A DNA stretch of 13,566 bases from a virus, in IMG/VR virus record IMGVR_UViG_3300035698_008634; one strand, 5' to 3'. Shown piece after piece: positions 13,507 through 13,566 of the stretch. A program made the translations under genes and the position numbers. The notes under the pieces are model-generated. The model did no database searches. It had not been told where the DNA came from and saw only the letters and a list, made by a program, of their open reading frames with translations. Every line of letters begins with the position of its first letter. Within the stretch, counting starts at the first letter, position 1.

Positions 13507-13536
13507 AAACCCACTCAAATTGAGTGGGTTTTTTTT
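13507..13536 (+). terminator. Intrinsic (rho-independent-like) terminator hairpin with a T8 tract, 16 nt after the MVP stop.
   Basis: aaa-CCCACTCAA-a-TTGAGTGGG-tttttttt. A perfect 9-1-9 palindrome at 13510-13528, realistically a 7-8 bp GC-rich stem with a 3-5 nt loop, followed by 8 T at 13529-13536. The flanking AAA and TTT can extend the stem. Confidence 0.65.
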
Positions 13537-13566
13537 GTAAACTAAATTGACATTATTCGATATAAA

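Follow-up and report, generated by a model that had tools for sequence, protein, structure and literature searches.

A probable rho-independent terminator behind the major-vault-protein-like gene of a Mahaphage-type megaphage

Bacterial and phage intrinsic terminators, of the type that TransTermHP and similar tools recognise and that is met behind phage genes with high expression, combine a G+C-cored stem-loop with a U tract, lie downstream of a stop codon read in the same direction and, being expected in phage DNA, carry little weight when encountered alone. A palindrome placed soon after the stop codon is also what the hairpin rule of mimiviruses describes in AT-rich viral DNA. As for the promoters, those of the sigma-70 family are bipartite (TTGACA-N17-TATAAT); in the Bacteroidota, which do without canonical −10/−35 promoters, the sigma-ABfr promoter has TTTG at −33 and TAnnTTTG at −7 (PMC7366714). 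The largest phage genome known in 2020 was a curated one of 735 kb, and the phage genomes above 634 kb belong to the 'Mahaphage' clade, for which replication in Bacteroidetes was predicted (Al-Shayeb et al. 2020, PMC7162821).

Here, we follow up a palindrome situated close to the end of a 13,566-nt stretch of viral DNA (IMG/VR record IMGVR_UViG_3300035698_008634; this whole stretch is hereafter termed the window), which an earlier note, made from the letters alone, had taken for the rho-independent terminator of a major-vault-protein-like (MVP-like) gene. The proposal is supported by the anatomy of the element, by its rarity in shuffled sequence and by the conservation of both its pairing and its position. 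From these lines of sequence evidence, we reason (with a probability of about 0.87) that the element is a rho-independent terminator, which would close the MVP-like transcription unit of a Mahaphage-type megaphage, i.e. a huge tailed phage that probably infects Bacteroidota.

Anatomy and conservation of the hairpin

The hairpin begins 15 nt past the TAA stop codon (13489-13491) of the ORF at 11023-13491, on the same strand, and the end of this gene is arranged as follows:

11023..13491, + strand: major-vault-protein-like gene, 822 aa (Pfam MVP_shoulder 7e-26, Vault_3 3e-11)
13492..13506, + strand: spacer from the MVP-like stop codon to the hairpin, 15 nt, poorly conserved
13507..13531, + strand: predicted terminator hairpin with an 11-bp stem (AAACCCACUCA / UGAGUGGGUUU), a 3-nt loop and the core CCCACUC/GAGUGGG
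13529..13536, + strand: T8 (U8) tract, the first three bases of which are shared with the base of the stem

The base calls and coordinates of the earlier note (hairpin arms, T8, TTGACA and TAAATTGA) were all confirmed in the sequence: CCCACTCAA occupies 13510-13518, A 13519, TTGAGTGGG 13520-13528 and the T8 13529-13536, and the end of the window reads ...gaggtacacTAA ccttaactggactct AAACCCACTCAA-a-TTGAGTGGGTTT TTTTT gTAAACTAAattgacattattcgaTATAAA. At the DNA level, 13507-13531 is a perfect inverted repeat (AAACCCACTCAA / TTGAGTGGGTTT; 12+12 nt, 100% complementarity). The loop of one nucleotide (the single a) that had been read from it is impossible in RNA; the predicted fold has a 3-nt loop on an 11-bp stem that includes five G-C pairs, with a G+C core of 7 bp directly abutted by the T8. 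The palindrome had also been called GC-rich, which is correct relative to its background (53% in the 19-nt core vs 28.1% in the whole window) but not in absolute terms. Its flanks are asymmetric, with a long T tract found only 3' of the stem (+ strand) and AAA only on the 5' side; since no more than three A precede the stem, the element would be essentially one-directional.

The folding energy, the calculation of which had been proposed as a check, amounts to −16.7 kcal/mol (MFE; z = −3.87), and folds as good were obtained in none of 200 shuffles. A perfect-stem hairpin with T tail and ΔG ≤ −15 occurred, on either strand, in a single one of 300 dinucleotide shuffles of the window, and the real window contains exactly one site of that strength, the hairpin at 13507. 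Among the eight intergenic regions of the window, the 75-nt tail that holds the hairpin (13492-13566) has a fold z-score of −4.2, while the other seven range from −1.2 to +0.5. The combination of hairpin and T-run is not a chance event. The 13507 hairpin was also the best-scoring match of a consensus terminator scan, which in its lax form found five sites over the whole window vs 4.0±1.9 expected, i.e. no enrichment, the remaining four matches being weak and located within genes; in view of this lax count, the case for a terminator is drawn from how strong the site is, where it lies and how well it is conserved. No Rfam family matched the window at the gathering threshold. A repeated REP/MITE-like element was considered as well and rejected, as the hairpin sequence is present in a single copy.

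A homologous hairpin follows the MVP stop codon in three relatives (L007, L008 and L004, the last being equivalent to L092), and in a hand-checked alignment of these copies with the window all 40 of the 40 pair cells were paired and none was broken; when the 3' partner was shifted by one column, pairing fell to 55%. The stem contains compensatory double changes (A-U to G-C in L007, C-G to U-A in L004) and three pairs with one-sided changes that give G·U (four G·U cells in total). Read from the − strand, each G·U would become an A/C mismatch, and so selection acts on the + strand RNA. The loops vary among copies (AAU/AAAUU, AAU, GAAA, AAAC), as does the spacer behind the stop codon, and a T-rich tail lies 3' of the hairpin in all of them. 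Judging from this alignment, the hairpin is conserved for base pairing rather than for sequence. With four independent copies, the covariation statistic is weak (its value was attained in 36 of 500 shuffles), but the G·U pairs point clearly to the + strand RNA; the test was limited to these copies because a search of IMG/VR with the degenerate pattern GAGTGGNTTNTTTT...TAAACTAA for further homologous terminators gave 0 matches. In L004 (12425-12515, equivalent to L092 2077-2168), the MVP stop codon and the terminator are set apart by an additional segment of approximately 95 nt with a higher G+C content. This segment is particular to the 597/736 kb genomes (neither the window nor L007 nor L008 has it), matched no Rfam family at the gathering threshold, and could represent a small RNA or an element of the 3' UTR.

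The layout extends well beyond these close copies. We assembled 52 non-redundant 3' ends of MVP homologues (each followed by 150 nt or more of sequence) and found a hairpin (ΔG ≤ −10) with T tail within 100 nt of the stop codon in 39 of them, every one with a sequence of its own, vs none of 156 control segments from the coding parts of the same genes and 14 of 52 on the antisense strand of the downstream segments. In distant relatives (L001, L003, L089-L091) the hairpin sequence is wholly replaced and the hairpin plus T-run layout retained (e.g. AAAACTGGGAGA-gaaa-TCTCCCAGTTTT in L001 and AGATAGAGCCG-tatc-CGGCTCTATCTTTTTT in L003). About 25% of the MVP homologues, including L002, L093 and L018, are without a terminator at this position. 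Using a strict scanner (perfect stem, at least three G-C pairs, ΔG ≤ −8, T tail) on approximately 645 kb of related loci, we recovered, per kb and strand, 0.35 sites in intergenic vs 0.037 in coding sequence (a density about 10-fold higher), and sites at 73 of 739 gene ends vs 31 of 52 MVP ends. A scan of gene 3' ends had been put forward in the earlier note as a way to refute the terminator; run on the relatives, it showed sites enriched in intergenic DNA, and the terminator reading was not refuted. By their distribution, such sites seem to mark the ends of some transcription units and not of each gene.

In a sister subclade, a hairpin that varies in sequence stands ahead of the MVP start codon and leads into A8-9 and then GCAAT-ATG, which is invariant (L001 ~5960-6000, L003 ~7955-7994, L089 ~2705-2746, L090 ~2435-2473, L091 ~3955-4000). 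This 5'-leader structure is conserved within the sister subclade and absent from the window.

The conserved pairing bears on whether the hairpin is mainly a 3' stem-loop that stabilises or processes the mRNA (as an exonuclease shield or an RNase site), with transcription ending elsewhere. Such a stem-loop would account for selection on the + strand RNA, with pairing kept and G·U tolerated, and a site after a probably highly expressed gene suits both roles. Against it, the hairpin is directly abutted by a U-rich tract both here and at most of the 39 positive ends, and it is this tract that defines termination and is needless for stability; moreover, the two roles are compatible, since terminator hairpins stabilise 3' ends too. 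We thus regard a predominantly stabilising function as improbable. Less probable still is a palindrome that acts as DNA, be it as the operator through which a dimeric regulator controls the downstream promoter or as a recombination or nicking site. Its perfect 12+12 nt symmetry and its situation just upstream of a promoter-like motif would agree with such a function, but the homologous copies are not palindromic as DNA (the four G·U cells are A/C mismatches on the opposite strand), and the distant relatives swap the whole sequence yet retain the hairpin and T-run, unlike what is expected of a sequence-specific binding site. A palindrome owed to chance and devoid of function, for which the near-chance rate of the lax scan over the window might speak, is effectively refuted (and hence vanishingly improbable) given the rarity of such strength in shuffles, its position in the intergenic tail, and a pairing and position conserved across dozens of relatives, with 39 of 52 ends against 0 of 156 coding segments.

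The replicon and its vault-protein-like gene

In blastn searches against phage records, the window matched only the 'uncultured phage' entries LR756501 and LR756503 (735,411 bp each) and LR756500 (462 kb), with 68.8% identity across 91% of the MVP region for LR756501/LR756503; LR756501 has been handled as a megaphage (PMC9723777). The closest MVP homologue (P0001, 72% identity) sits on contigs of 597,284 and 736,551 bp, which are collinear with the window (GDP-mannose dehydratase 82%, a 142-aa protein 70%, a 173-aa protein 65% and MVP 72%), and a short contig (L049) is nearer, with 79-87% protein identity. Among the genes nearby in the relatives, Pfam detects Phage_T4_Y07B, PhageMetallopep and, weakly, Portal_T4. 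As judged by homology, the window is the DNA of a Mahaphage-type megaphage, i.e. of a prokaryotic virus. In L004, the closest megaphage relative, a full-length tmRNA (RF00023, 73.6 bits, E = 8e-27) is encoded at 13906-14294 (− strand), approximately 1.5 kb downstream of the pair formed by the MVP and dihydrofolate reductase (DHFR) genes.

All window genes from position 2916 on are encoded on the + strand; they are tightly spaced, their stop and start codons overlapping, and one long − strand ORF (2-2827) runs off the left window edge. No Shine-Dalgarno motifs were found upstream of the window genes. The Bacteroidota are known to lack canonical Shine-Dalgarno-led initiation, so that this result fits a Bacteroidota-type host and is no argument for a eukaryotic virus. 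The stop codons of all 14 complete window genes are TAA or TGA, never TAG, and the ORFs contain no in-frame TAG; the window gives no hint that stop codons are recoded, as has been reported for some megaphages, and the missing TAG stops could be a matter of composition only (14 genes, 28% GC).

A sugar-modification cluster spans 2-8734 of the window (GNAT acetyltransferase, DegT/EryC1 aminotransferase, GDP-mannose 4,6-dehydratase and a second Methyltransf_24 protein), in which the − strand gene encodes a multi-domain protein of at least 942 aa with Methyltransf_24 and two GT2 domains. Four small proteins without assigned function are encoded between this cluster and the MVP-like gene. The sugar cluster is reminiscent of glycan clusters in giant viruses, a likeness that probably lay behind the 'virus-like' framing of the earlier note, and is collinear with the megaphage contigs.

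That framing, with its reference to the Mimiviridae, amounts to reading the hairpin as a hairpin-rule 3'-end/polyadenylation signal in a giant virus of eukaryotes. It could draw on the AT-rich DNA (28% GC), on the sugar cluster (GDP-mannose dehydratase, DegT, GNAT, glycosyltransferases), which superficially recalls mimivirus glycosylation clusters, and on the missing Shine-Dalgarno motifs. Nevertheless, every detectable relative is a megaphage contig (0.6-0.74 Mb) or record, phage Pfam families and a bacterial-type tmRNA are found among the neighbouring genes of the relatives, and the genes are co-directional and closely packed, with stop and start codons that overlap. The predicted host phylum of these relatives is known to lack both canonical Shine-Dalgarno-led initiation and canonical −10/−35 promoters. 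The hairpin itself combines a G+C core with an obligatory T tract, and a hairpin rule is not in force where one of eight intergenic regions folds significantly (in the window) and about 10% of gene ends carry a site (in the relatives). We therefore give a giant-virus signal almost no probability. The element had rightly been held to bear on the type of replicon: together with the homology evidence, it settles the question in favour of a prokaryotic virus and not a giant virus of eukaryotes.

The 822-aa product of the gene that the hairpin follows matches the solved rat MVP (4hl8/4v60) at E = 1e-22 and is 72-87% identical to homologues on megaphage contigs. It is laid out as Vault_3, MVP shoulder and a long helical C-terminus. 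The family is very large (at least 4,908 proteins at E ≤ 1e-5, of ~800-840 aa, many of them on contigs of 200-736 kb), and in one subclade the MVP-like gene stands immediately downstream of a PhageMetallopep-domain gene. In PHROGs, neither the MVP-like protein nor any of the four proteins encoded upstream of it fell into a family, and our search of the literature on phage MVP-like proteins found one 2023 preprint, the subject of which is two gut-phage MVPs (bioRxiv 10.1101/2023.11.10.566534). Genes of the MVP-like family are very common among huge phages and have hardly been studied.

A bipartite motif downstream of the T tract

The T tract is followed by sequence that is partly invariant among the four homologous copies (window, L004, L007 and L008), and in which these elements can be located:

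13538..13545, + strand: TAAACTAA, putative upstream (−35-like) box, identical in all four homologous copies
13547..13552, + strand: TTGACA, a chance word in the non-conserved 18-nt spacer
13561..13566, + strand: TATAAA, start of the conserved downstream (−10-like) box (A)TATA(T)AAA, truncated where the window stops
L004 12555-12585, L007 2800-2830, L008 5841-5871: copies of the motif in the relatives

The invariant parts are TAAACTAA and, further on, (A)TATA(T)AAA, with exactly 18 nt from TAAAC (13538-13542 in the window) to TATA. In the alignment, the TATAAA of the window falls on the ATATATAAAA of L004, L007 and L008, where 16-20 nt separate this box from the start codon of DHFR further downstream. 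A DHFR_1 gene comes next after MVP in these three and in L092, and in L004, L007 and L008 it starts 98-175 nt past the MVP stop codon. By analogy, we infer that the next gene of the window is a dihydrofolate reductase, the start of which is placed near 13590 (~25 nt past the window end) when L007 is used as the guide, and TAAAC-N18-TATA(T)AA probably drives this gene just beyond the window.

The motif recurs in the related genomes more often than composition predicts. In approximately 130 kb of close relatives, AAAC-N16-18-TATAWAA was found 26 times, vs 5.9±2.2 in locally shuffled sequence, and the stricter TAAAC-N18-TATAWA 19 times in the close loci, vs 1.8±1.4 expected; a promoter pattern with a spacer of N13-19 matched the five relatives, and one with N12-16 matched none. 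On visual inspection, some 20 of these 26 have the ATG of an ORF no more than ~25 nt further downstream (mostly 12-25 nt). Apart from the copies of the window and those listed above for L004, L007 and L008, approximately 20 are spread across L001, L003, L004, L007, L008 and L089-L091, and looser ones precede two genes of the window itself: TAAAC-N18-TACAAT from 10896 (10896-10930) before the MVP-like gene, with an implied leader of ~95 nt, and TAAAC-N18-TATATAG (~2875-2905) before the first + strand gene. This distribution makes the bipartite motif a candidate clade-specific megaphage promoter. Since six of the 26 copies stand directly behind a strong hairpin with T-run, terminator-promoter junctions recur in these genomes. 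A T-run precedes 15 of the 26, in most cases without a hairpin, and part of the T8 could belong to the promoter instead of, or besides, the terminator.

The earlier note had placed the promoter of the next gene at this point, which is probably right by virtue of TAAAC (13538-13542) and TATAAA (13561-13566) and not of the two elements that it named. The first of these, TTGACA, had been read as a sigma70 −35 hexamer. It occurs 11 times in the window vs 13.9 expected, and the corresponding position in the three relatives that share the terminator reads CCCATT, ACTAAT and CCTTTT; a −10 partner would fall at ~13569-13576, past the window end, and a consensus sigma-70 scan gave 121 matches in the window vs 99 in shuffles, i.e. 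barely above. At chance frequency, and with no conservation in L004, L007 and L008, the −35 box was rejected. The second, TAAATTGA at 13543-13550, had been compared to the Mimiviridae early promoter, whose octamer AAAATTGA it matches in seven of eight positions; words within one mismatch of the octamer number 74 in the window vs 96.8 expected, and TAAATTGA lies in the same non-conserved stretch and is not kept in the relatives, so that this candidate fell as well. If the host belongs to the Bacteroidota, canonical −35/−10 boxes would be unexpected anyway. The best match to TAnnTTTG within 13537-13566 is again TAAATTGA, with four of the six specified bases, and the sigma-ABfr box was likewise rejected, the conserved elements being TAAAC and TATATAA.

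Proposed mechanism and comparison with known systems

Every sequence-level hallmark of an intrinsic terminator is present at this site (a G+C stem with a short loop, a U tract, a position behind a gene and pairing that is maintained), and from these we infer that transcription terminates at the U tract. In the mechanism that we propose, RNA polymerase would transcribe the MVP-like gene on the + strand and, 15 nt beyond the stop codon, produce the 11-bp hairpin with its 7-bp G+C-rich core and then eight U. The hairpin would form in the exit channel, behind a polymerase paused on the weak U8:dA8 hybrid, and the MVP mRNA would be released, its 3' end also shielded by the same hairpin. The MVP-like gene would thus be the last of its transcription unit, the 3' boundary of which is marked by the element, and the TAAAC-N18-TATAAA situated directly downstream would restart transcription for the next co-directional gene.

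The consistency with which a strong terminator follows the MVP genes suggests a highly expressed and separately insulated unit. On this basis, we tentatively advance a broader proposal, which we hold to be possible but somewhat less likely to be right than wrong: the succession of hairpin, T-run and TAAAC-N18-TATATAA may be a recurrent terminator-promoter junction of Mahaphage-type genomes, its promoter part may represent an undescribed class (maybe for a phage-encoded or phage-modified sigma factor), and the terminator found in ~75% of the homologues may mark the MVP-like gene as an insulated, highly expressed unit, and hence its product as an abundant, possibly structural vault-like protein in infection. 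A phage-encoded or phage-modified sigma factor might read the motif because neither the sigma-70 nor the sigma-ABfr consensus matches it. From the junction, a candidate consensus can be drawn for the promoters of this uncultivated clade of megaphages, and it could help to annotate operons and to analyse metatranscriptomes.

Compared with the promoters of the sigma-70 family, the megaphage motif is alike in its bipartite form, its spacing and its A/T-rich, TATA-like downstream box, whereas its upstream box is TAAAC and not the TTGACA of sigma-70 or the TTTG of sigma-ABfr; its downstream box, TATATAA, also differs from the TAnnTTTG of the latter. At first sight, the downstream box also resembles the T4 late promoter TATAAATA. 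With the mimivirus hairpin rule, the element shares the palindrome soon after the stop codon in AT-rich viral DNA; it differs from it in its G+C core and its U tract, in being found at a minority of genes, and in residing on a bacteriophage replicon.

The closest likeness is to the intrinsic terminators of bacteria and phages, with which the site has in common the G+C-cored stem-loop and subsequent U tract behind a co-directional stop codon, the conservation as structure and not as sequence, and the intergenic enrichment. Nothing essential sets it apart from them, apart from the detail that the A-U extension of the stem uses the first three U. The hairpin at 13507 is a further instance of a well-known kind, ordinary in phage DNA.
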